64,000 nucleotides of DNA from Nitrososphaerales archaeon (GCA_965197925.1 CBDAOC010000017.1:1-64000); one strand, 5' to 3'; shown: positions 999 through 61,956, counted from the stretch's first letter. Notes: generated from the sequence alone by a model not told the origin. A program made the numbers and translations.

Positions 999-3136
999 CG
1001 CTTGATGTTCTGGATTTGGATATACCTGGCGAGCTAAAGATCCTTTTCGAAAAGCTTGGGTATAAAACACTATTTCCTCCGCAAGAGGAGGCGGTAAGAC
1101 AAGGTCTTCTAGCTGGGAAGAATCTTCTTGTAACTACTCCAACGGCAAGTGGAAAGACCCTGATTGCGATGCTCGCTGCTACAAAAACAATTTTTGAAAG
1201 AAATGCAAAAGTAATTTATCTTACACCTTTACGCGCCCTTGCAAGTGAAAAGCTTGCAGAGTTCAGAATATTCGAGAATCTGAAAATGAAAGATGGTAGG
1301 AGGATAAAGGTATTATTATCAACAGGAGATTATGACGGTATAAACGAAGGTCTTAAGAATGGAGATATCATAATTTTAACAAACGAAAAGATGGACTCCA
1401 TAATGAGGCATGGAGCGGAATGGATCGATGATGTAGGGCTATTCATTGCAGATGAGATACATCTGTTGGGTGATAAGGCTAGAGGCCCAACGTTAGAAAT
1501 GATGTTGACGAAGGTGAAGATGCAACAGAACAATGCACAACTTTTAGCATTAAGCGCCACAGTATCAAATGCCAATGAAGTAGCATCATGGCTGGGATGC
1601 AAATTGATTAGCAATAACTGGAGGCCTACAGATCTGATTGAAGGGGTCTATGATTATGGTTCTGTAAAACTACAGGATGGTAACATCATTAGCATAGAAA
1701 CTACTGGCAGGGGAGCACCGATTGATTTAGCAATAGATTCCATTACAAATGGAGGCCAGGTTTTGATATTTGCAGAAACTAGGAAACGAGCGGTTGCACT
1801 GGCAACAAAATCATCAGAGCTTGTTAAACGGTTTCTTAGTGATAAAGAGAAAATACAGGCTGAAGAGGTAGCTAGTAAAATACTAAGGGGTAATGATACT
1901 GAACTTACACTTAATCTATCAGAACTTGTTAAGAGTGGAGTCGGATTCCATCATGCTGGTCTGAATCCAGTGAGCAGACAGGTTTTGGAAGATGCATTTA
2001 GAGGTGGAGTGATCAAAATTCTTACTGCAACACCAACGCTAGCTGCCGGTGTCAACCTGCCCGCTAGAAGAGTTGTAATAAGCAGTATCACGAGGTACGA
2101 TTATGAGTATGGCGCGAGTGTTCCAATAAGTGTTTTAGAATACAAGCAACTCTGCGGGCGTGCGGGCAGACCGAAGTTCGATACCCGTGGAGAAGCAATT
2201 GTAGTGGCGCCTAATGCAAACGCGGAAGAGATATTTGAGCATTACGTACGTGGTACACCAGAACCCCTTCATTCAAAGCTTATTGATGATAGAGCTATAA
2301 GGATTCATTTACTAAGCACTATCGCAGCTATACCTGGAATAAAAAGGAAGGAGATAGAGATCTTGTTCTCAAACACCCTCCTGGGAAAACAATACAGAAA
2401 GTCAACGATCAACGCGAAGGTTAACTCTGCTTTGGATTATTTGCAGCTTCAAGAGATGATAACGAAACGAGGTGAGAGGTTCTCCGCAAGCAAATTCGGG
2501 AAGAGAACTTCATTGTTGTATATAGATCCTTTGACGGCAGTTGAATTCAAACAAGCTTTGTTAAATGCAAAAAATGATGGGAAACACACTCTCGGTTTCC
2601 TACATATAGTTACTGACTGTACGGATTTTTTTCCGAAACTTCAGTTACGCAGCAAGGATGTTGAGGAAGTTCAGATGTTAGTTGATGAATATGAACATGA
2701 ATTATTATTTGATGTTAATGAATACGATTGTTCTAGAAGCTTACTTGCACTTCATGCATGGACGCAAGAATATACGGATAAACAAATACTCACAGTGTTT
2801 GGAGTGGAGCCCGGTGATATGTACAGAATTGTGGAAACGAGTGATTGGTTGCTACATTCGTTATTCGAAGTTGCAAAGTTAATTTCACGGGAGGATATTC
2901 TTCAAGAGATATACATGTTGAGGAAGCGTGTAAAGTACGGAATCAAGGAAGAGCTCATGCCAATAGTATCTCTTGAGGGCGTGGGGAGAGTTAGAGCAAG
3001 GGGACTTTATGATGCTGGTTATAAGGACATAAGAAGTATACAGAAGGTATCTATAGAGAAACTTGCCTCAGTGCAGAAGATTGGTGATGGACTGGCAAGA
3101 AAGATAAAGGAACAGCTGAATAAGGGGCCACAATGA
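995..3136 (+). CDS. hel308: Hel308/Ski2-like SF2 DNA helicase
   Basis: PTASGKT, DEIH, LSAT, FHHAGL, TPTLAAGVNLPA, GRAGRP, C-terminal HhH GVGRVRAR; ATGA overlap with mcm. Confidence 0.95.
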   Translation: MTLDVLDLDIPGELKILFEKLGYKTLFPPQEEAVRQGLLAGKNLLVTTPTASGKTLIAMLAATKTIFERNAKVIYLTPLRALASEKLAEFRIFENLKMKDGRRIKVLLSTGDYDGINEGLKNGDIIILTNEKMDSIMRHGAEWIDDVGLFIADEIHLLGDKARGPTLEMMLTKVKMQQNNAQLLALSATVSNANEVASWLGCKLISNNWRPTDLIEGVYDYGSVKLQDGNIISIETTGRGAPIDLAIDSITNGGQVLIFAETRKRAVALATKSSELVKRFLSDKEKIQAEEVASKILRGNDTELTLNLSELVKSGVGFHHAGLNPVSRQVLEDAFRGGVIKILTATPTLAAGVNLPARRVVISSITRYDYEYGASVPISVLEYKQLCGRAGRPKFDTRGEAIVVAPNANAEEIFEHYVRGTPEPLHSKLIDDRAIRIHLLSTIAAIPGIKRKEIEILFSNTLLGKQYRKSTINAKVNSALDYLQLQEMITKRGERFSASKFGKRTSLLYIDPLTAVEFKQALLNAKNDGKHTLGFLHIVTDCTDFFPKLQLRSKDVEEVQMLVDEYEHELLFDVNEYDCSRSLLALHAWTQEYTDKQILTVFGVEPGDMYRIVETSDWLLHSLFEVAKLISREDILQEIYMLRKRVKYGIKEELMPIVSLEGVGRVRARGLYDAGYKDIRSIQKVSIEKLASVQKIGDGLARKIKEQLNKGPQ

Positions 3137-4119
3137 GTTTCATATTTGCGGTGATCGTATCAGCAATAGTATTTCTCATGACCTACTTCCTTACACCACC
3201 TTTTATCAGGTATCTTCAAGGGCAGGGGATGACAGTGCAAGATTATCATAAACCTGACAATAAGCAAGTACCAAGACCTGGGGGGCCAATCATTATTGTT
3301 TCACTAACTATTGCCGAAATAACACTCTTCTTCTTTACAATGAGTGCGGATGTATTGGCAATTTTGCTTGTCACATTAATTGCGTTCTTCATAGGCTACG
3401 TTGATGATAGAAGGGTCATGCCTGGATATTTTAAGCCAATTGCTCTACTTATTGCCGCTACGCCCATAATACTACTAGGCACGTACGACTTTAATCTTGA
3501 CTTTCCGTTATTTAGCTCTGCAAGAATACCGCTGCTGTACATAGGCTTGATCTTTTTAATGATTACGATAACTGGTAATACTGTAAATTCTATTGATGTA
3601 TTGAATGGCGTAGTAAGCGGCTTCATGGCTATTGCAACCGTGCCCCTAATGGTCGCCTTGTTTCTGAAAGGTAATATTGAGATATTGCTTGCTACATTGA
3701 CATTGTTCTTTTCAGCACTGACATTTTACAAGTATCACAAATATCCCAGCAGAATATTTCCTGGAGATTCCAGTGTGCTTACATGGGGTGCTATGTATGG
3801 AGCCATTGCAATAGTTGGAGAAGTAGAATTTGTGGCAATAATCGCATTATTACCTGCAATAATAAACTCCTTTCTCTTTCTTGCTAGTGTAAAGCGAATA
3901 GTTGAGCATAGAAGAGTGAAATCCAGACCCGTGATCCTGCTTGATGATTATAAATTAATGGCATCCAAGGAAAAGACTGCTCCTGCAACTCTAGTAAGGA
4001 TGATACTTGCCAACGGTCCCCTGCATGAGAATAAGATAACTAGAAACATATTCAAACTTGCAGGGTTTTCTGCTGGTTTGGCTATATTTACTGCACTTCT
4101 CGTCGGTGTTACAATATGA
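3133..4119 (+). CDS. MraY/GPT family UDP-GlcNAc:polyprenyl-phosphate GlcNAc-1-phosphate transferase
   Basis: Multi-TM; VPRPGG, GYVDD, NTVNSIDVLNG, IFPGDS motifs. Confidence 0.88.
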   Translation: MSFIFAVIVSAIVFLMTYFLTPPFIRYLQGQGMTVQDYHKPDNKQVPRPGGPIIIVSLTIAEITLFFFTMSADVLAILLVTLIAFFIGYVDDRRVMPGYFKPIALLIAATPIILLGTYDFNLDFPLFSSARIPLLYIGLIFLMITITGNTVNSIDVLNGVVSGFMAIATVPLMVALFLKGNIEILLATLTLFFSALTFYKYHKYPSRIFPGDSSVLTWGAMYGAIAIVGEVEFVAIIALLPAIINSFLFLASVKRIVEHRRVKSRPVILLDDYKLMASKEKTAPATLVRMILANGPLHENKITRNIFKLAGFSAGLAIFTALLVGVTI

Positions 4120-4340
4120 GGTTGGTCTTTCTTCTTGGTTACATCGTAATAATGTGGGCTCTCCTTATGATTGGTTCATTCATTCTAATCAAGATAATCG
4201 CACCCATAGAACTCGAAGGCAGCGAATTCCTAACATCAGTTTCCAAAGGAGTTATTGCATTATTAATGGTAGCGATGTGGCTATACATACTCGTCGCAAT
4301 AAAGAATTCTTACATAGGGCATAAGCTTGTAGGAAATTGA
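4116..4340 (+). CDS. Small two-TM membrane protein
   Basis: 74 aa, two hydrophobic helices, ATGA-coupled to the upstream gene. Confidence 0.7.
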   Translation: MRLVFLLGYIVIMWALLMIGSFILIKIIAPIELEGSEFLTSVSKGVIALLMVAMWLYILVAIKNSYIGHKLVGN

Positions 4341-4344
4341 ACAA

Positions 4345-4839
4345 CTACCTCTCCCACTCCTTCCTCTTTTTATTGTAAGTTTCTAGATTGTAATTACGTT
4401 TTTCTTTTGCAGGTACACCCATTACTACCGTATTTGCTGGAACATCTTTCGTAATGATCGACCCCATAGCAACTACACTATTTTTTCCAATTCTAATTCC
4501 AGCTTTGATAACAGCTCCTGCACTTATTACCGCGTTATCTTCTATTACTACACCTGCCCACCGCACGCTAGGTGGATAGGGATCATTTGTAAGTACCACA
4601 GAGGGGCCTATGAAAACATTCTTTCCAATTCTGCTCTTAGGTGGAATGTATGCCATTCCTTCTATGCGAGTGTTATCGCCTATTTTAACGTCGTAATCTA
4701 TATGAGCCAGTGAACCGATCATTACGTTATTACCAATTATAGTTCGATCACCAACATATGCAAAATGCCATATCTTTACGCTCTTGCCTCTCTTGACATT
4801 CTTGCCAATGAAGTTGATGACTCTCACTTTAGGTGCCAT
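4345..4839 (-). CDS. Hexapeptide-repeat N-acetyltransferase (WbpD-like)
   Basis: IWHFAYV, IGxN repeats, FIGPSVVLTNDPYP, VVMGVPA. Confidence 0.88.
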   Translation of the reverse strand: MAPKVRVINFIGKNVKRGKSVKIWHFAYVGDRTIIGNNVMIGSLAHIDYDVKIGDNTRIEGMAYIPPKSRIGKNVFIGPSVVLTNDPYPPSVRWAGVVIEDNAVISAGAVIKAGIRIGKNSVVAMGSIITKDVPANTVVMGVPAKEKRNYNLETYNKKRKEWER

Positions 4840-5096
4840 GGTTTGCCCTCATTGACTATCTTTTTTGGTAACTTTTCCTTCCAACGTTCCAAGAATTCGA
4901 TGTCATTAGATTTCCTTCTCAACTCATCTGGTAGCATGATGGGGATCTCCTCTATTATAGGATAGAAACGCCAACACTTGCTACAAAATAATGACCCATT
5001 AATAATTACATCCCCGTTCGATTCAAGTTCATAAATCTCAAGCGGATGATTCTTGTCTATAGGACACGCCAGTATATCGATCATTTGTTTTTTCAT
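4824..5096 (-). CDS. Trm112-family protein
   Basis: DILACPIDK...LFCSKCWRFYPIIEEIPIMLPDELR. Confidence 0.9.
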   Translation of the reverse strand: MKKQMIDILACPIDKNHPLEIYELESNGDVIINGSLFCSKCWRFYPIIEEIPIMLPDELRRKSNDIEFLERWKEKLPKKIVNEGKPWHLK

Positions 5097-6031
5097 TTCA
5101 GCTCAAGATAAATAGGAGAACCTGTTTTACTTGAAAGTAACGCCGCTTCTGCAACTGTGGTAGTGTTAATGGCATCATCTATACTGATCAAGGGTTCAGA
5201 ATTCTTCTCAATAGCATTTATAAAATTTTTCAGTTCAAGCGTCAAAGGTTCCTCCAACTTTCTACTTGGTGTAACAGTGTCTCCTCCCTCATCGATCTTA
5301 ATTTCCTGTGTTATAAAATCCCCCGTTATGATGGCATCTGTGCATACAGCAATGAACTGACGAACCTTCTTTGGTGTGATCCAGTTTGAAGCAATGAAAG
5401 CTATCTTCTGATTCTTGAAACCAAGGACTATAGCTGCGAAATCTTCATGTGTTCCCCTTGTACTCCCAGCTCTAGCAAAAACCAAATGAGGTTTATCATC
5501 AAAAAGGTATAATGCAGTGTCAATATCATGCACCGAAGTATCGTATATTATTCCTACATCATGAATGTTTAATGGCATCCTGTTCTCCCTATGAAATTCG
5601 AGCATAAGCAAATCCCCATATTTCTTTTGTGAAATAAAGTTCTTTACATCATTAACTGCTGGGTTAAAACGTTCTATGTACCCGGTAGTTAGAACAACTT
5701 TATTGCGTTTTGCTATGTCACGCATCTGTTCGCATTCCGCCGATGAAGGCGCCATAGGTTTTTCAACCAAGACGCCTATTTGATTTTCCATGAAATATCT
5801 GGCCACTCCAAAATGGGTAGAAGAAGGTGTGCTAATTATTACCCCATCAATTTTTTCATTTTTAAGCATCTCGTCTATAACCGTGTATGGTTTGACATTG
5901 TACTTATCGGCAAAAGTTTTCGCTCTAACGGCATCAACGTCACAGATTGCACTCAAAGAACCTAATTCCGAAAGAACCCTTGCATGATTCTTGCCCCATC
6001 CTCCTACACCAACAACAGCTATTTTTGCCAT
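5093..6031 (-). CDS. Gfo/Idh/MocA NAD-dependent oxidoreductase (WbpB-like)
   Basis: GVGGWG, VLVEKP, GYIERFNPA, DTSVHDID. Confidence 0.9.
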   Translation of the reverse strand: MAKIAVVGVGGWGKNHARVLSELGSLSAICDVDAVRAKTFADKYNVKPYTVIDEMLKNEKIDGVIISTPSSTHFGVARYFMENQIGVLVEKPMAPSSAECEQMRDIAKRNKVVLTTGYIERFNPAVNDVKNFISQKKYGDLLMLEFHRENRMPLNIHDVGIIYDTSVHDIDTALYLFDDKPHLVFARAGSTRGTHEDFAAIVLGFKNQKIAFIASNWITPKKVRQFIAVCTDAIITGDFITQEIKIDEGGDTVTPSRKLEEPLTLELKNFINAIEKNSEPLISIDDAINTTTVAEAALLSSKTGSPIYLELK

Positions 6032-6036
6032 GGATA

Positions 6037-6954
6037 CTACCAGACTGGTACCAGCCAGTGCATGTAGGACTTGATATCAGCCCTAACAGCTTTGGAATAA
6101 GTCTCCCGTATACTTTTTGAGACAGGTCCCTCTTCACCATCACCTATTTTATGTCCGTCAACACTGATTACTGGAGTAACTTCAGCTGCCGTTCCAGTAA
6201 GAAAAATTTCATCACTAATGTAAAGTTCCGTTCTAGGAATTGCACGTTCAGTCAAATCATAACCCAGATCTTTTGCCAGACTGATGGCAGTATCTCTAGT
6301 TATTCCCTCGAGGACGGAAGATGATATTGGAGGAGTGTAAATTTTTCCGTCCCTTACTACGAAAACGTTTTCCCCAGGAGCTTCACTAACCAATCCGTAG
6401 TTGTCCAGCATTATGGCTTCGTCGTAGCCATTCCTCTTGCATTCCTGAGTTGCAAGAACTGAGTTAAGATAGTTACCACCAGCTTTTGCAACCGGTGGTG
6501 TAGATAGATCATTTATTCGTCTCCAAGTAGATATACAAACTCTTATTCCGTTTGAATTAAGGTACTGATCGAATGTGAACAAAAGTATAGCTACATGTGA
6601 AGGCGATTTTTCACTCACACTTAGATCTATTCCATGGAAGCCCACAAATGCAATAGGTCTAATGTAACAGGAAGTTTTGATCTGGTTATTTTTTATTACT
6701 TCAAGGGTAGCATCAATAAGTTCCTTCACTCTATATTTTATATTTATGGAGTAAATGCCTGCAGAACTGCACAGTCTTTTCATATGGTCCTCAAGCCTGA
6801 AGATGTATAGGTTTTCCTTAGCAGCATATGCCCTTATGCCCTCTATGACACTTGTGCCATAATGCATTGCATGAGTCATCACAGGTACCTTCGCATCTTC
6901 CCACTTTATTATCTCACCGTCAAACCATACATTGCTAAATTCTTTGAACTGCAT
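6037..6954 (-). CDS. ilvE: Branched-chain amino acid aminotransferase
   Basis: HYGTSVIEGIRAY, YIRP, AKAGGNY, EAPGENVF, LEGITR, FLTGTAAEV. Confidence 0.95.
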   Translation of the reverse strand: MQFKEFSNVWFDGEIIKWEDAKVPVMTHAMHYGTSVIEGIRAYAAKENLYIFRLEDHMKRLCSSAGIYSINIKYRVKELIDATLEVIKNNQIKTSCYIRPIAFVGFHGIDLSVSEKSPSHVAILLFTFDQYLNSNGIRVCISTWRRINDLSTPPVAKAGGNYLNSVLATQECKRNGYDEAIMLDNYGLVSEAPGENVFVVRDGKIYTPPISSSVLEGITRDTAISLAKDLGYDLTERAIPRTELYISDEIFLTGTAAEVTPVISVDGHKIGDGEEGPVSKSIRETYSKAVRADIKSYMHWLVPVW

Positions 6955-7433
6955 CCTTCAACGAGAAACCTAATCAGTTATAAAAAGTTTCAAACTTATG
7001 ATTGGATTAGGATGTTCACACTACATGTTCAATACTCTGGAGAGATCAAAAAAGATTCATGTTATCCATGATGAATCGGTCGATGAGTTAACAGTGCTTA
7101 GCCTATAATGAAAGATTAAATAATTTTCTACACTTGGCATTGATTGGTGAAACTAAAGATGAAAGCCGTAAATTATTGTAAGAAATTTATCCTGAGGAAT
7201 GAGTCCTATTCAATGGTTTTGGAACAAATGGTGGTTTCATAGAAAAGAATAATCTTAGAAAAACAGTTTTTCCCAACGTTCTAGTTCTGCCTTGTATTCT
7301 GGCTCTGGGACAAGCGAAAACAGATTCTGTTCAAGGAAGCTGAACCAAACACCTATCATTCTCAAGCAGTTAGAGCGCATACGCGACGGTTGATATGATA
7401 TACTTGATGAATTTCAAGAGAACATTGATCAGG

Positions 7434-7520
7434 CGGGAGCGGCCGGATTTGAACCGGCGACCTCCAGCGTTCCCGATGTCTTCCCGAGGCTGGTAGTCTA
7501 CCAAGCTAACATACGCTCCC
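7434..7520 (-). tRNA. tRNA-Pro(CGG) with a 13-nt intron at 37/38 (7470-7482)
   Basis: Reverse complement GGGAGCG...CCAGC-CT-CGG-G[AAGACATCGGGAA]C-GCTGG...GGTTCAAATCC...CGCTCCC-G; bulge-helix-bulge-like pairing CTCG/CGGG; TATA-like TTATAAAA about 25 bp upstream. Confidence 0.93.
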
Positions 7521-7699
7521 TAAAGTTGGTTTTAGTATTGTATTTTATAAGACCATTATTTAAGCCTCGATAGCTGCTTTAGACGTTCAAGCAAATTGTG
7601 ATCATTAATAGGAATAACTAATAGTGGTCAGTAGATATAACTAGGCATCAAGGATTGCCGTTATTAGCCCAAGGTTGTCTGTCTTGATGAAATTGGTAG

Positions 7700-8450
7700 T
7701 CTTTACAAATCCTTCAGATGTTCTTACAATGACAGAAAATGTGATTGTAACAATCGTCACCAAGTGGCATCAAGAAGCTCGGGTAGAATCCTCCGTTACA
7801 AATGATAAGGAAATGGAATAAAATTTTGTGTATATAGTTCAAGTCAAAGACCCACTAATGGTTTTACGGCTTATGTATGGACAGATAGGTCACTTCTTCC
7901 AGGGTATTCAAATATTGTAACTTAGCCCTTATTAATCAAGAGGTATGATGGATACCCTATAGAGATCTTTGTGTGGGATAAATAATGGTCCCATGCCGGT
8001 ATCGTCCGGTTACAATTCTTTTTCTTTTAAATTCGGGAATGCTGTATCTCCACGCAAGAGTATAGGTAATTGCTTTGAGGGAATAATTACAAAAATAATT
8101 GATGGTGACACGATATGATGGGATGCGAATACGGCTTGTACTTGTCAAAACACCAGAGACGGAAGAGATGGGATATGCTGAAGCAGCACAATTCATATCC
8201 ACTCTTCGTGGTGATGGTAAGACAGTACTGGTGGATCAGGATGACAGACAAAAGTATGATAAATACAATATGATTATTGTTGTTGTCTATTGCGATAATG
8301 TATTGATTAATGCAGAATTGCTCTTTAAAGATCATGTTGTTATAATGCAGGGTTAATTAAGGTTGTAGAATTTGGTATGAAGATTGGGCAAAGTTTTTTG
8401 GATGTTGACCATATTGCTACCGCAATGGTGGATGGATCTGATTTTTGAAA
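7700..8450 (+). pseudogene. Degraded surface protein: thaumarchaeal Ig-like module followed by a thermonuclease (SNase) domain
   Basis: Broken frames give ESSVTNDKEME*NFVYIVQVKD, YPIEIFVWD, then IIDGDT/RIRLVLVKTPE/DKYN...LINAELL; stops and frameshifts; boundaries approximate. Confidence 0.65.
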
Positions 8451-8651
8451 TCTACCATATCTATTGGTATATGTTAGGTTGTATAGCACAAATATCTTCT
8501 GTCCCATTTCAACGGTAATGTAAATTGCACACACATATAAGATTCTCCTCGAACTTATCAGTTGGGTTGGAAAATCTCATTGTCAATCCTTACTCACATT
8601 TATCAAACTGAATGCTGTTGATAAGCCATTCTCACATACACATGATTCCTT

Positions 8652-9494
8652 TTAACCATAAGATTCATACCTTATATCATGAGAGCCATCAGGCCTCTTC
8701 TTCCTTTGCTCTACAAATCCCAACGGACCCAGCTTCTGCATTGCACCGTCGATGGTTCCCTGCCACCCACAAAGATAAAACATGGTATTCTCCGGTGTTA
8801 TTTTTTCGCCAACAATCTCTTCAAGTACTGATTTTTCTGAACCAGTTGATTGTAGAAATGTTTCAACTCTTCCCTTCTTTCCTCCCCATGATCTGTTTAG
8901 ATGTTCATCGGGTCTGCTTATACTTGTTCTATACCTAAAGTTCCATTTATCACGTCCTTTATCTAAGCTTTCCTCTTCCAGTTCCGTGAGAAGTTGCCTG
9001 TAACCAAGTTCGTCAACATAACTAGCACCGTGCAAAACAACTAGCTCCCTCTTGTCGCCTCTTGTTTTAAGATGCAATGAGAAACTAATGAATGGGGCCA
9101 GACCAGTGCCTCCCCCCATCATAACTATACGCCTTGTATCTTGCGAGCCATCAGGTCTCTTGTCATATATTCCAAAGGGTCCCGTTGGCTTGAGCCAGGA
9201 AATTTCATCGCCCTCTCTCTTTTCAAATATTGCAGATGTAAGTCTTCCTGGAACAGGTTTTTTTACCCAACGAATATAAAGTTCAAAATATTTTTTCTGT
9301 TCGGGTGGAGAGGCAATTGAATAAGCCCTTCTAATCATTTTTCCTCCTTCATTTTTAATTGGCAGACCTAGGGTGATGAATTGACCTGCTTTGAAGTCAG
9401 GAACTGGATTAATCTCAGGTTTTATCCTGATGATGATCAAGTCCTCTTTTAACACCCTTACGTATGAAACAATCCCTTTGTTATCAACTACCAA
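8652..9494 (-). CDS. fpr: Ferredoxin/flavodoxin-NADP+ reductase
   Basis: FKAGQF, RRAYSIAS, GRLT, GGGTGLAPF, YLCG, C-terminal YESYG. Confidence 0.9.
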   Translation of the reverse strand: MVVDNKGIVSYVRVLKEDLIIIRIKPEINPVPDFKAGQFITLGLPIKNEGGKMIRRAYSIASPPEQKKYFELYIRWVKKPVPGRLTSAIFEKREGDEISWLKPTGPFGIYDKRPDGSQDTRRIVMMGGGTGLAPFISFSLHLKTRGDKRELVVLHGASYVDELGYRQLLTELEEESLDKGRDKWNFRYRTSISRPDEHLNRSWGGKKGRVETFLQSTGSEKSVLEEIVGEKITPENTMFYLCGWQGTIDGAMQKLGPLGFVEQRKKRPDGSHDIRYESYG

Positions 9495-38191: not shown

Positions 38192-38797
38192 TTGAACCAT
38201 CACGCTTTGTCAGGTCATGTATTAGTAAAACAGCTAGGTGCCGTAAGAGGAATCGAAGGTGATGTGGCACAATGGTATTGGGATGCTGTAACAAACGTAA
38301 TTGATGACAAGTTTGAGTTTGAATCCAGGAGTGGTCAAAGAAAACCCAGAAATGCCATAGATCCTGTTAATGCTTTACTGAATTATGGATATTCAGTTTT
38401 GGAAAGTGAATGTTGGAAAGCCGTCAACAAGGTTGGTTTGGATGCTTATGTGGGATTTTTGCATGAAAATTACAACAACAAAGCATCATTAGTATACGGT
38501 TTGATGGAACCATTTAGATGGCTAGTTGATATCACTGTAATCAAAATAGCATTAAGGAGATTGATAAAGAAAAAGGATTTCCTAGAAACTAATGAAGGTA
38601 ATGTGTGATTAAGACCTAATGGCGTTAAACTACTTTTAAATGAGTTAGGAAAGTTGTTTGGAATGAGAGTTATTTACAAGATCAGAAAGCATCAGTGGTC
38701 TGGTATAATCGAAATAAAAACAAGAGAGTTGATGATGTATATTGATAAAAGATTGGATTATTTCGATTTCAATGTCCTAAGAACTAATATATTATGA
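38192..38797 (+). pseudogene. cas1: Solo Cas1 (casposase-like) C-terminal remnant
   Basis: RGIEG..AQWYW, RNAIDPVNALLNYGY, GLDAYVGFLHE, SLVYGLMEPFRWLVD; in-frame TGA at 38606 then LRPNGVK...QWSGIIEIKTRELMMY..FDF; N-terminus missing; no cas2 or array nearby. Confidence 0.9.
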
Positions 38798-49736: not shown

Positions 49737-50020
49737 CAATATGGTATTTTGAAATTTATTCCTTATCCATTTCAGCCTAGATAATATTGATACTACATTT
49801 TTTTAAGTATAGGTTACAAGATTTAGTCTAAAAATAATGTAAGCAAATCCATTTTCCAATTTGGTCATGAGTGAATTTATACCTCCTTTTCAGGTTCAAA
49901 CTCATTAGCAGCAAAAATCTTGAAAATTAATAGTTCTTCTCTTCTAATTTAGTGATTTGATCAAATAGCTTCCAATTAGATCCTTAGTAAACATGTTCTT
50001 CCTGCAAGTGCAAGCTAAAT

Positions 50021-51186
50021 GAGGCTTGGGCGTAATTTAGTTCGAAACGATAAGTTCAGATTCCATTTTTCATTGGTAATGTGTTTAGCTCAGACTCGAT
50101 ACTTCTTCATATATTATTTTTGATTGACGTGATTCGGACAAAACCTAATAGGAAAAGGGGTAGACCATTCTACTATTCTCCTACAGTTATGGTGAGATGC
50201 TTCATCGTTAGAGTATGGATAAGAATATCAGGCAACAATGCTTTGCATGAATATTTTTCGATAGACATGCCATACAACAGGAAGGTAATGAAGGCATGTG
50301 GTCTTGATAGGTTGCCAGACAGAAGGACGTTTGATAGAAGGTTCAAGGCCGTATCAATTGACATAAGATCAAGGATAGATGTTATGGGTATGCTCTTCAT
50401 AAAAGATGGGTTGGTAGACTTGCGGGATAAGGCCCTGGATAAAGGGCAAACTTGGGATGGGTATGCTCTTCATAAAAGATGGGTTGGTAGACCCAGCCAT
50501 AATATCCGTTGACAGTTCATTGTTGAAAGCAAAGGGACATGTATGGCACAAATCTAGCATGAAGAAGAATGAAGTGCCACGCTCCGGTATAGATACAGAT
50601 GCTCGATGGGGCTACAGCAGAACCAAGGGATGGGTATTCGGATACAAGATACATCTAGCATGTAGTACTGGTTCGTTGATAGTTCCATTATCAGCTGATT
50701 TCACAACAGCTAACATTACTGATAACAAGATGTATGAAAGCATAACATCTTCATTGCCTACAGGAATGGTAAGGTATGTTGTAGGAGATGAAGGATATGA
50801 TGATCACAAGTTATGTGATTTCAGCAGGTATAGAGGGTATCCAGTATTCCCATTGGAAAGGTATAGGCATACTACAGATAATAATAGACTGGCATTGCTG
50901 CAGTTCTATCAATCGGAATTTGGGCAGCATGTATATTCTCGGAGGAGCATAAGCGTTGAGCCATTGATAGAGCATATGAAGGATGTATTTACCATAGATC
51001 CATTGCCAGTTAGAGGATTTGATAAAGCTAGGAGCATCGTTCTGATTTCTATATTGCTATACCAGCTGATGGTATACTACAACTACTTGACAGGAAGACC
51101 ATTAAGGGCATTGAAGCACATGTTGGGAAGTTAATCAATCAGATGCATCAAGTTATTTTTGTTATATGGAATAATGCCCATGCCTC
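50021..51186 (+). mobile_element. DDE_Tnp_1-type IS, copy A; transposase split only by a 73-bp insertion
   Basis: TIRs GAGGCTTGGGC / GAGGCATGGGC (rc), 4-bp TSD AAAT; ORFs 50081-50512 and 50457-51134 (SVDSS, FGYKIH, GDEGYD, RRSISVEP). Confidence 0.95.
50384..50492. repeat. 36-bp exact direct repeat around a 37-bp unique insert (repeat-spacer-repeat)
   Basis: ATGGGTATGCTCTTCATAAAAGATGGGTTGGTAGAC at 50384-50419 and 50457-50492; insert TTGCGGGATAAGGCCCTGGATAAAGGGCAAACTTGGG; single copy in sister IS copies B and C. Confidence 0.97.
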
Positions 51187-51247
51187 AAATAAATATTGGT
51201 ACTGGGTTAACAAAATCTTTAAACCAAATGCCTAATAGTTGTAGAGT

Positions 51248-58530: not shown

Positions 58531-58564
58531 CTGTTGGAATAGTTATAGCATCAGATAAATAATT

Positions 58565-60523
58565 GAGGCTTGGGCCTAATTTAGTTCGAAACGATAAGAT
58601 CAGGTTCCAGTTTTCATTATTGATATGTTTAATTCAGACTTGATACTTCTTCGTATATTATTTTTGATTGATTTAATTCAGACAAACCTCTTAAGAAGAG
58701 AGGTAAACCCTACTACTATTCTCCTACAGTAATGGTGAGATGCTTCTTCTTTAGAGTTTGGCTAAGAATATCAAGCAACAATGTGTTACATCATTGCTTT
58801 TCGATAGATATGCAATACAACAGGAGAGTTATGAAATCATGTGGTTTGGAGAGTCCCATACAGGAGAACTTTCGACAGAAGGTTCAAGACCATATCAATT
58901 GACATAAGATCAAGGATAGGTGCTATGGGTGTGCTCTTCATAAAAGATGGATTGGTAGACCCATTAGTATCCGTTGACAGTTCATTGTTGAAAGCAAAAG
59001 GACATGTATGGCTAAGATTAAACATGAAGAATGAAGTACCACGTTCAGGTATAGATTCAGATGCAAAATGGGGATTCAGTAGAACCAAGGGATGAATATT
59101 CAGATACAAGATGCATGTAGCCTGCAGTACAGGCTCATTAATTGTACCATTGTCTGCTGACCTAACTGCAGCAAATATTTCTGATATAACGAAGTCATCC
59201 CAATACTCTCCAATACATCATAATCGACGAAATGATAACAAATGCCAGATAGTTTTGTGCATTCTTCTCATATCTGATCCTGGTTCTGTGGAACCCATTC
59301 TTCAACCAGGCAAAGAATCTCTCCACAACATAGCGCGTCTTGCCGTATAGGTATTGTTCTGTATTATCATTTTGTTGTTGTGTCTTACTGTTTTTTCTGT
59401 AAGGCATGCAGTCAGAGATTTTTCTTTTGGTGAGGTATTTCCTGATGAATTCTGCATCATAGCCCTTGTCTGCTTGGCACCGCGCAATTTTTCTGATAGA
59501 TCTCTCATCCAGATATTGTGAGATGCCATCCATCACGTCTACAAATCTTGCAGAGTCATGCTGATTTGCAGGACCCATCACTACTGAGACTGGCAGTCCG
59601 TTTTGTTCCACCGCAACGTGTATTTTTGTGCCTGAAATCCTGTTGAATCCGTTGTATCCTATGACGCTTCCCCTTTTTTGGCCGGAATTGATGACGAATC
59701 GACCGTTTTTTGCAGCTGCATCTTGCCTGATCTGTGGGCTGATTTGACTGCAGCGGAGAGGATATTCTTCCATATTCCACGTCGCTGCCAGTTCTGCAGT
59801 CTGCGGTGCGCAGTTGATTTGGAGCCGTACCTTTGTGACATCCCAGTCCACCTGCATCCTGTTATCCCGACAAACAGGATTCCGTTGACTGTCTTTCTGT
59901 CGTCTGCCCTTGGCCTTCCGGTTCTGGCTGGCTTGGGGAGATGCGGTGATATCATCTTCCATTGTTCACCTGTTATCTCCTGAAATTTCATGATCTGCTA
60001 CGGGCAGCATTGCAAATAGATCCAAATGATCGTCAATTATTCACTAAATGATCAGTTTTGGGATCAGTTGAACATGTATGAGAGTATAACAGCATCAGTA
60101 CCAGGAAGGGATTAGATACATTGTGGGAGATGAGGGATATGATGATCATGAGTTATTTGATTTCAGCAGGTATAGAGGGCATTTACTAGTATTCCCATTG
60201 GAAAGGTACAAGCATACCACAGATAATAATAGACTGGCATTGCTGCAGTTCTATAACTGTACGGACAGTATGTATATTCTCGGAGAAGCATAAGTGTTGA
60301 ACCATTGATAGAGCACATGAAGGATGTGTTTGCCATAGATCCATTGCCAGTTAGAGGATTTGATAAGGTAAGGAGTATAGTGTTGTTATCAGTATTGTTG
60401 TATCAGGTAATGGTTTACTACAACTACTTGACAGGAAGGCCTCTTAGGGCATTGAAGTATATGTTGGGAAGCTAATAGTAATAATTTCAAAATAATATTA
60501 TAATTGAATTATGCCCAAGTCTC
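58565..60523 (+). mobile_element. DDE_Tnp_1-type IS, copy B (inactive, interrupted by IS5 copy 2)
   Basis: GAGGCTTGGGCC left end and GCCCAAGTCTC right end; transposase with stops. Confidence 0.93.
59191..60070 (-). mobile_element. IS5-family element, copy 2 (880 bp, apparently intact), nested in copy B
   Basis: Same TIRs as 39041-39918; TSD AAC; ORF1 59659-59991, AAAAAAG at 59673-59679, ORF2 open to 59195. Confidence 0.96.
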
Positions 60524-60803
60524 AACTAAATGCCTTCTTTCCAGAACATACTACTTTGCTTTTCACAAACTTCATATATCTTACAATATTGTCTTTGCAA
60601 TTTATTGACGTCATAATCGGATAAGAATTTCATAGTACCTTTTGAATCGACCATTCGCCAGATCATGATAGCAAGAGTCAAACCTGAAAATTTAATGCTT
60701 ATGTTCTTCAAATTATTAGTCACAAATACTAGCTCAAAGTTAGGTAATTTGGTAGAGTTCATGATAGTTCTTGAAATAGCGAATCAATCTTATTGAAAAT
60801 TGC

Positions 60804-60877: not shown

Positions 60878-61956
60878 GAGGACATGGGCATAATTCCATA
60901 ACAAAAATAACTTGATGCATCTAATTGATTAACTTCCAAGCATGTGCTCCAATGCCCTTAATGGATTTCGTGTAGATGATTGTAGTACTATTACCTGATA
61001 CAACAATACTGATAACAACACTATACTCCTTACCTTATCGAACCCTCTAACAGGTAGTGGGTCTATATCAAATACATCCTTTATCTGCTCTATCAATGGT
61101 TCAACACTTATGCTTCTCCGAGAATATACATACTGTCCGTACAGTTATAGAACTGCAGCAATGCCAGTCTATTATTATCTGTGGTATGCTTGTACCTTTC
61201 CAATGGGAATACTAGTAAATGCCCTCTATACCTGCTGAAATCAAATAACTCATGATCATCATATCCCTCATCTCCCACAATGTATCTAATCCCTTCCTGG
61301 TACTGATGCTGTTATACTCTCATACATGTTATTATCAGAAATATTTGCTGCAGTTAGGTCAGCAGACAATGGTACAATTAATGAGCCTGTACTGCAGGCT
61401 ACATGCATCTTGTATCTGAATATTCATCCCTTGGTTCTACTGAATCCCCATTTTGCATCTGAATCTATACCTGAACGTGGTACTTCATTCTTCATGTTTA
61501 ATCTTAGCCATACATGTCCTTTTGCTTTCAACAATGAACTGTCAACGGATACTAATGGGTCTACCAATCCATCTTTTATGAAGAGCACACCCATAGCACC
61601 TATCCTTGATCTTATGTCAATTGATATGGTCTTGAACCTTCTGTCGAAAGTTCTTTTATCTGGCAACCTATCAAGACCACATGCCTTCATTACCTTCCTG
61701 TTGTATTGCATATCTATCGAAAAGCAATGATGTAACACATTGTTGCTTGATATTCTTAGCCAAACTCTAAAGAAGAAGCATCTCACCATTACTGTAGGAG
61801 AATAGTAGTAGGGTTTACCTCTCTTCTTAAGAGGTTTGTCTGAATTAAATCAATCAAAAATAATATACGAAGAAGTATCAAGTCTGAATTAAACATATCA
61901 ATAATGAAAACTGGAACCTGATCTTATCGTTTCGAACTAAATTAGGCCCAAGCCTC
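60878..61956 (-). mobile_element. DDE_Tnp_1-type IS, copy C (inactive, inverted relative to B)
   Basis: Near-identical reverse complement of copy B, including the shared TGA after SRTKG. Confidence 0.93.

Follow-up and report, generated by a model that had tools for sequence, protein, structure and literature searches.

The window analysed here is a 64 000-nt stretch of DNA from a Nitrososphaerales archaeon (contig C17, positions 1–64000, of the assembly GCA_965197925.1; the genome is called G000 below and its contigs are designated by the letter C). One of the insertion sequences (ISs) in this window bears within its transposase gene a 109-nt structure (positions 50384–50492) in which 36 nt of coding sequence are duplicated around a spacer-sized insert of 37 nt. 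We consider this structure to be, very probably, the fossil of an off-target adaptation event by a CRISPR system. Established are its geometry, the existence of empty target sites, the origin of the insert in the organism's own DNA, the recurrence of such scars in the genome and the fit of their dimensions to the lengths of the organism's own CRISPR repeats and spacers. The first-pass annotation of the window had proposed off-target spacer integration, possibly by a casposase, into a repeat-mimicking site, and had presented the outcome as a unique knock-out of the element; the integration itself is upheld by the geometry, the genome's own arrays, the empty sites and six more scars, while the casposase, the repeat mimicry and the uniqueness of the knock-out were not borne out. 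The assembly amounts to 2.91 Mb in 20 contigs (GC content per contig 34–40%), with a completeness of 98.7% and an estimated contamination of 5.4%; because an archaeal AmoA is encoded in it, the organism is taken to be an ammonia-oxidising archaeon.

The scarred IS copy spans positions 50013–51198 on the + strand and measures 1186 nt, compared with ~1087–1113 nt for unscarred copies. Within it, the left copy of the 36-nt target (50384–50419, +), the 37-nt insert (50420–50456, +) and the right copy of the target (50457–50492, +) follow one another directly; the two copies are direct repeats, 100% identical, that start 73 nt apart (the scar unit), and the insert has a G+C count of 20/37 (counted by eye), all of which agrees with what had been read from the sequence initially. 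In the window, the 36-mer is found four times at up to 3 mismatches (chance expectation 0.00 in 100 shuffles), i.e. the two copies in the scar and one in each of two sister ISs; there, as also claimed, the target is present once and without insert (58925–58960 on the + strand and 61559–61594 on the − strand, sequence matches with 2 mismatches each). The 37-mer occurs only once in the window. The coding consequence is a split gene: an N-terminal transposase fragment (143-aa open reading frame (ORF), 50081–50512, +) reads through the left copy, then through the insert, and terminates in the shifted frame of the right copy, and a C-terminal fragment (225-aa ORF, 50457–51134, +) begins at the right copy. 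Deletion of one 36-nt copy plus the insert (73 nt) merges the corresponding stop-to-stop frames of 152 and 238 codons into a single frame of 335 codons, which fits the 326-aa protein predicted earlier from its start codon. Public sequencing runs were also compared with the window, the comparison resting on contigs from three studies and not on raw reads (one run may be the source sample): the IS flanks are matched without mismatch and the insert bin is covered, at a coverage of 175–798 versus ~1400–9300 in adjacent bins (~6–9% of the neighbouring IS depth), depth being used here solely for the presence of the insert and not for its copy number. One contig joint skips 74 nt and corresponds to the unscarred form.

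The strongest evidence for off-target integration is recurrence. Six scars were found in the genome in addition to that of the window (E1; duplication 36 nt, insert 37 nt), with duplications of 31–37 nt and inserts of 28–39 nt. E2 (C20:730231; duplication 37, insert 36) occupies a different position in the same IS (1 scarred out of 74 sites), and E3 (C20:935899; duplication 36, insert 36) at an ORF stop/start junction. E4 (C15:78685; duplication 36, insert 37) is nested within E7 (C15:78648–78684 and 78792–78828; duplication 37 with 1 mismatch, insert 34), both at the last codons of an ORF. E5 (C19:180281; duplication 37 with 2 mismatches, insert 28) and E6 (C17:116185; duplication 31, insert 39) are situated in pseudogenes or non-coding DNA. 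It appears that the genome holds a series of about seven scars, six of which follow the 36–37-nt ruler of its own CRISPR repeat. The scars survive in places where they cause little damage, namely IS copies (E1 and E2), gene ends and pseudogenes. Paralogous empty sites were found for E5 and E6; for the C15 scars no empty site was found via relatives, the 410-aa ORF having no homologue in 20 of them. By eye, no common termini were detected among the inserts of the seven scars.

The frequency of such structures can be judged from the whole set of exact direct-repeat pairs (length of at least 20 nt, spacing of at most 400): there are 202 in the genome, 38 of them isolated. Among the latter, 12 have repeats of 30–40 nt, and 9 out of these 12 enclose inserts of 34–39 nt (6 out of 9 once the four copies of E1 are collapsed, one of the six being a pair of genuine CRISPR repeats of 31 nt, at C1:49193). 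The C15 pair is not among the isolated ones, the filter having removed it on account of the overlap between its two scars, and a mismatch-tolerant rescan of the genome yielded no more scars with a unit of 70–76 nt. A few short and weak pairs with units of 56–64 nt (C19:147096, C16:133961, C5:3202 and C16:146487) were left aside as doubtful. On C15 (78648–78828), the duplication of E4 begins exactly at the repeat-insert junction of E7 and spans the E7 insert plus 2 nt. The nesting makes E7 older than E4, and the number of mismatches between copies (1 for the outer E7, 0 for the inner E4) fits that order; this pair may represent the stepwise growth of a proto-array.

The dimensions of the scars were then set against those of the true arrays. 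A k-mer scan and an exact direct-repeat scan identified mini-arrays with a 37-nt repeat ending in GGATTGAAAC: one of 5 repeats at C1:1–305, the first repeat being cut by the contig start (spacers of 35, 33, 35 and 22 nt), one of 3 repeats at C18:164620–164801 (units of 72 and 73 nt) and, at C19:7563–7744, a duplicate of the C18 array that belongs to a 9.5-kb segmental duplication. As the first-pass annotation had invited one to verify, the 37-nt repeat and the 72–73-nt units match the 36-nt duplication and 73-nt unit of the scar; the duplications of the other scars are of 36, 36, 37, 37 and 37 nt (plus 31 nt for E6). The 37-nt insert can be compared with the own spacers of these arrays (22–36 nt, 5 distinct) and with those of relatives. 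Among 400 other genomes of the order, arrays with a near-identical 37-nt repeat (2–3 mismatches) exist in 2 (i.e. in 3 out of 401 at up to 3 mismatches when G000 is included). The relatives' spacers beside this repeat range from 34 to 39 nt (17 and 25 measured, 42 in all), a range that includes the 37 nt of the insert, and are of exactly 37 nt in 1 out of 17 and 7 out of 25 cases. In G366 there are 18 repeats of the 37-nt type, with spacers of 34–39 nt; in G371 there are 26–27, also with spacers of 34–39 nt, and the array abuts a full type I operon encoding Cas7/Csh2, Cas5, Cas3, Cas1 (318 aa) and Cas4.

The inserts themselves are in part traceable to the host genome. That of E1 matches C13:68501–68537 on the − strand (37/37 nt), the sole occurrence in the genome outside the four copies of the scar (see below), and that of E2 matches C19:469639–469674 (36/36 nt), intergenic DNA between housekeeping genes. 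The E5 insert has a 27/28-nt match at C1:51317–51343, those of E3 and E6 match diverged paralogues only and no source was found in the genome for E4 and E7. The E1 source is an ordinary chromosomal stretch without match to a mobile element or RNA family, and no Rfam family was found at either of the two perfect source loci. For the spacers of the true arrays, no self match was found in the genome. A viral origin was sought with 24–25-mers from the four inserts lacking a perfect self source, which gave 0 matches in viral_contigs; a 30-mer of the 37-nt insert likewise gave 0 matches in metagenome_contigs. In the first-pass annotation, a copy of the 37-mer in host DNA had been counted against spacer integration. 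Such a copy exists, perfect and on another contig (C13), but it does not refute the reading, since naive adaptation yields self-derived spacers and since the geometry recurs with unrelated inserts. Self-targeting spacers occur in genomes with decayed CRISPR-Cas systems; the present case resembles them in the perfect host copies and in the missing or decayed effector genes, and differs from them in being located outside arrays.

We propose the following scheme, in which the identity of the integrase, the order of the steps and the spread of the scarred IS are what we infer. An integrase of Cas1-Cas2 type, with a ruler fitting the 37-nt repeat, would have been loaded with a 37-nt prespacer from the host chromosome (now C13:68501–68537) and, away from any array, would have attacked the two strands of an IS transposase gene at points separated by 36 nt. 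Once both single-stranded gaps were filled in, the 36-nt target would have stood on either side of the spacer, and the 73 added nt would have caused a frameshift that breaks the transposase into its 152- and 238-codon parts. The IS, by then presumably non-autonomous, may have reached four loci by gene conversion with its ~80 sisters, by transposition in trans or by both.

Several observations weigh against this scheme. First, the duplication of the window scar is 36 nt long and not 37. Second, the resemblance to the CRISPR repeat that the first-pass annotation had supposed for the target was not found: the identity of the E1 target to the repeat is 16/37 for a null mean of 14.1 (sd 1.9), and the six targets summed are no closer to the repeat than random 37-mers (p = 0.40). 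Third, the sole complete Cas1-Cas2 of the assembly, which also provides its only Cas2, is a fusion encoded with an intact cas4 at C20:38914–40643 (PF01867 2e-91, PF09827 2.7e-18, PF01930 1.6e-47; best model type I-B Cas1b), and it is 67–93% identical to fusions in five Nitrosopumilus metagenome-assembled genomes, all of which are located ~600 nt from large arrays whose repeat measures 30 nt and whose spacers are mostly of 35–37 nt. Judging from these relatives, it would go with 30-nt rather than 37-nt repeats. Fourth, a close homologue of the G371 Cas1 or Cas7 was not found in G000 (best identity 29% for Cas1, no match for Cas7). A Cas1 system with a 37-nt repeat exists in G371 (a matching system in the lineage had been thought necessary in the first-pass annotation), and no fitting integrase was found in the present assembly. 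Since the assembly is 98.7% complete and the C1 array runs past the end of its contig in the direction in which the operon would be expected from the arrangement in G371, the fitting cas genes may be unassembled rather than lost. No leader likeness was evident between G371 and the C18 mini-array. Fifth, the tetranucleotide TATG stands 5′ of both perfect sources (E1 and E2; n = 2) in one relative orientation, but the third, partial source lacks it, so that it is only a hint of a protospacer adjacent motif (PAM); an attempt to define the PAM with 378 spacers from the relatives' arrays gave no match in G000. Sixth, the support for the insert from public runs comes from contigs and not from raw reads. 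Finally, a single origin of the scar requires later recombination among IS copies, as explained below.

The alternative that survives best, although we regard it as unlikely, is that a template switch or break repair doubled the 36 nt and that the junction was filled with 37 nt copied from elsewhere (templated filler DNA). The insert is indeed a perfect copy of host DNA, and its source has as a neighbour, at a distance of 275 nt, a 113-nt piece of the same IS with the 36-mer target in unscarred form (C13:68132–68537), which could hint at a local templated event. However, reading of the flanks by eye disclosed no useful microhomology at either junction, and the scarred copies are on contigs other than that of the source. 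Moreover, templated repair predicts no fixed lengths, yet six independent events display 36–37-nt duplications with inserts that cluster at 34–37 nt, in agreement with the CRISPR unit of this genome. Insertion of an IS or of a miniature inverted-repeat transposable element with target-site duplication was also considered and rejected: the 37-mer exists only in the four copies of the scar and at its single source, and the other inserts are unrelated.

Still less probable is that the structure is a selected, functional mini-array on the IS, serving for example as a guide in conflicts between mobile elements. Mini-arrays are known on mobile elements, and four loci share the 109-nt unit with 100% identity while the rest of the copies differ by ~5%; the contribution of the 36-mer to that identity says little, however, because the 36-mer shows almost no variation from one IS copy to another (70 exact occurrences). 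No Cas6, Cas7, DevR or RAMP effector gene was detected in the genome with Pfam models, the pseudo-repeat is plain transposase coding sequence unlike the real repeat, and the spacer matches an ordinary chromosomal stretch and no mobile-element or RNA family.

Integration of a short fragment by a casposase, as envisaged in the first-pass annotation, we judge very improbable. Casposons integrate by means of a Cas1-family integrase and staggered cuts, produce a target duplication of ~14–15 bp and carry a multi-kb cargo with terminal inverted repeats and a family B polymerase (PolB). The scar has in common with them, on the reading of off-target adaptation, the Cas1-family integrase, the staggered cuts and the target duplication, whereas inverted repeats, PolB and a large cargo are not seen here. 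Candidate enzymes do exist: a solo Cas1 of 398 aa without Cas2 is encoded at C1:31612–32808, with IS copies on both flanks, and four Cas1 fragments are present in the genome. One of them is in the window (38192–38608, 138 aa; cas1 model 1.5e-36 over positions 150–270); it is 40% identical to the solo Cas1 and, from its sequence, may derive from either a casposase or a CRISPR Cas1. However, the PolB genes are far from all Cas1 copies, the solo cas1 gene has no nucleotide-level paralogue in the genome and is merely flanked by ISs, the duplication (36 nt) is far longer than that of casposons and the insert is devoid of inverted ends. A casposase would also have no reason to take a spacer-sized cargo or to fit the length of a CRISPR repeat, and nothing links such enzymes to a 36–37-nt stagger. 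As for an assembly or adapter artefact, the high repetition of the IS makes it hard to assemble and contigs only were compared, but this explanation is practically dismissed by the identity of the unit at four loci with different flanks, by the equality of the insert with genomic DNA on another contig, by its presence in contigs from three studies at a depth fitting a few of ~80 copies and by scars of the same geometry in unique DNA.

The fate of the scar was analysed across the IS family. The transposase is of the DDE type, of the IS5/IS1182/IS982 kind, albeit under the NCBIfam cut-offs (IS1182 model 2.2e-17, IS982 7.5e-11); a PF01609 match was obtained with a sister copy (4.6e-21). The family occupies 139 loci, 63 full-length (as assigned by our own criteria) and 76 partial, and makes up ~3.7% of the genome. 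The 109-nt unit is found with 100% identity at four loci whose left flanks differ: the window, C20:514583–514691 (−), C20:515586–515694 (+) and C20:533472–533580 (−). At up to 2 mismatches, 83 sites in the genome contain the 36-mer; 79 are single and empty and 4 are scarred. The scar had been regarded initially as a unique lesion and as a route to inactivate mobile elements. Its presence in four IS copies at four distinct loci, 79 of the 83 sites being unscarred, indicates that it did not stop the spread of the IS; stray integration does not neutralise a multi-copy element.

When the scar itself is set aside, the four IS copies that carry it differ from one another by 4.7–5.8%, with the exception of an inverted pair that differs at 4 out of 1117 positions, and the nearest relative of each is an unscarred copy, at 3.1–3.6% (values from a fast MAFFT alignment of 79 copies). 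A haplotype located directly upstream of the scar, GATAGATGTT, is common to all four scarred copies and absent from most of the unscarred ones. It is unlikely that identical hits arose independently at four loci. In our reading, the scar originated once and then spread by gene conversion, by transposition in trans or by both; given the divergence of the scarred copies and their proximity to unscarred ones, this single origin is the one that needs later recombination. The inverted pair consists of two scarred copies arranged head to head, 155 nt apart (C20:513882–516334), and represents either an inverted duplication of recent date or a composite structure.

An extension of the proposed scheme, which we put forward tentatively and consider improbable at present, is that off-target adaptation is coupled to IS activity in this lineage. 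The integrase would receive its prespacers from breaks at IS donor sites and would integrate preferentially into IS DNA; the element would in turn multiply the repeat-spacer-repeat unit, so that integrases and transposons together would seed and spread the precursors of arrays. The hints in this direction are that 2 out of about seven scars are in the same IS, that sources lie near IS copies, that one scar is present at four loci and that the C15 pair is nested. Concerning the sources, that of E2 is 645 nt from a copy of the same IS (C19:467906–469674) and that of E1 is close to the C13 fragment already mentioned; relative to random positions, the proximity has P = 0.029 (E1) and P = 0.062 (E2), a post hoc comparison with n = 2. 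For scars located elsewhere than in this IS, the partial sources are 7–15 kb from IS copies. On this coupled view, the C15 pair would show a neo-unit hit again at the same junction, that is, the natural stepwise growth of a proto-array.

As regards the origin of CRISPR arrays, laboratory work has shown that repeat-spacer-repeat units can be generated by Cas1-Cas2 at any place in a genome. Off-target integration by Cas1-Cas2 in Escherichia coli in vivo reportedly makes neo-CRISPR loci (work of Nivala, Shipman and Church, 2018, Nat Microbiol 3:310). The products are alike: a spacer-sized insert between duplicated, repeat-length pieces of non-CRISPR genomic DNA. They differ from ours in arising from laboratory over-expression, whereas the scars described here, with 36–37-nt duplications, are in a natural archaeal genome, and in that here there are several events, one of them nested and one copied to four loci by an IS. 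In a preprint citing that work, natural evidence for off-target integration, from two other species, is termed only ‘circumstantial’ (10.1101/148544). With Pyrococcus furiosus Cas1-Cas2 in vitro, full-site integration occurs at non-CRISPR sites 30 bp apart, which is the length of its repeat (PMC6698737). Paired attacks on opposite strands at repeat-length spacing in non-CRISPR sites are thus common to both cases; the preferred P. furiosus sites share positionally conserved bases with the repeat (PMC6698737), whereas no likeness is detectable here, with only 6–7 sites. No further natural case was found among the best-ranked literature matches, subscription journals not being covered.

The scar series is accordingly a case of a known mechanism, found in nature and comprising several events; it is new for this lineage of archaea and is a rare natural record of a phenomenon shown mainly in the laboratory. 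We did not see the nested growth or the multiplication of units by an IS described earlier. It supplies concrete targets for testing the rulers and the target choice of integrases. It also makes the cost of adaptation (self-derived spacers, gene disruption) visible in a lineage with decayed effector genes.

The remaining CRISPR-related features of the genome are the following. Remnants of a second repeat type, of 30–31 nt, are present at C1:49193 and C20:873557. In the region C20:38914–42097, there is no array beside cas4/cas1-cas2; a gene of the HD/HD_assoc_2 type is located upstream, and it has a paralogue on C13, at ~1.6 kb from the E1 source. At C19:173397–177951 there is a decayed type I-G locus, which comprises a Cas4g fragment (first 132 out of 546 model positions), a Cas3g that lacks the initial ~120 model positions and a complete Csx17, the latter not found in the 8 other genomes of the family. 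This locus is followed by an IS fragment, and scar E5 is 2.3 kb downstream. The 9.5-kb stretch that includes the C18 array occurs twice with 99.7–100% identity (C18:158001–167514 and C19:992–10457), and an IS end is ~20 nt from the array; the pair is either a true duplication or assembly redundancy. In the window, the sister IS copy at 58560–60531 is in two pieces (58560–59186 and 60071–60531) separated by ~880 nt of other DNA, which is probably another inserted element.
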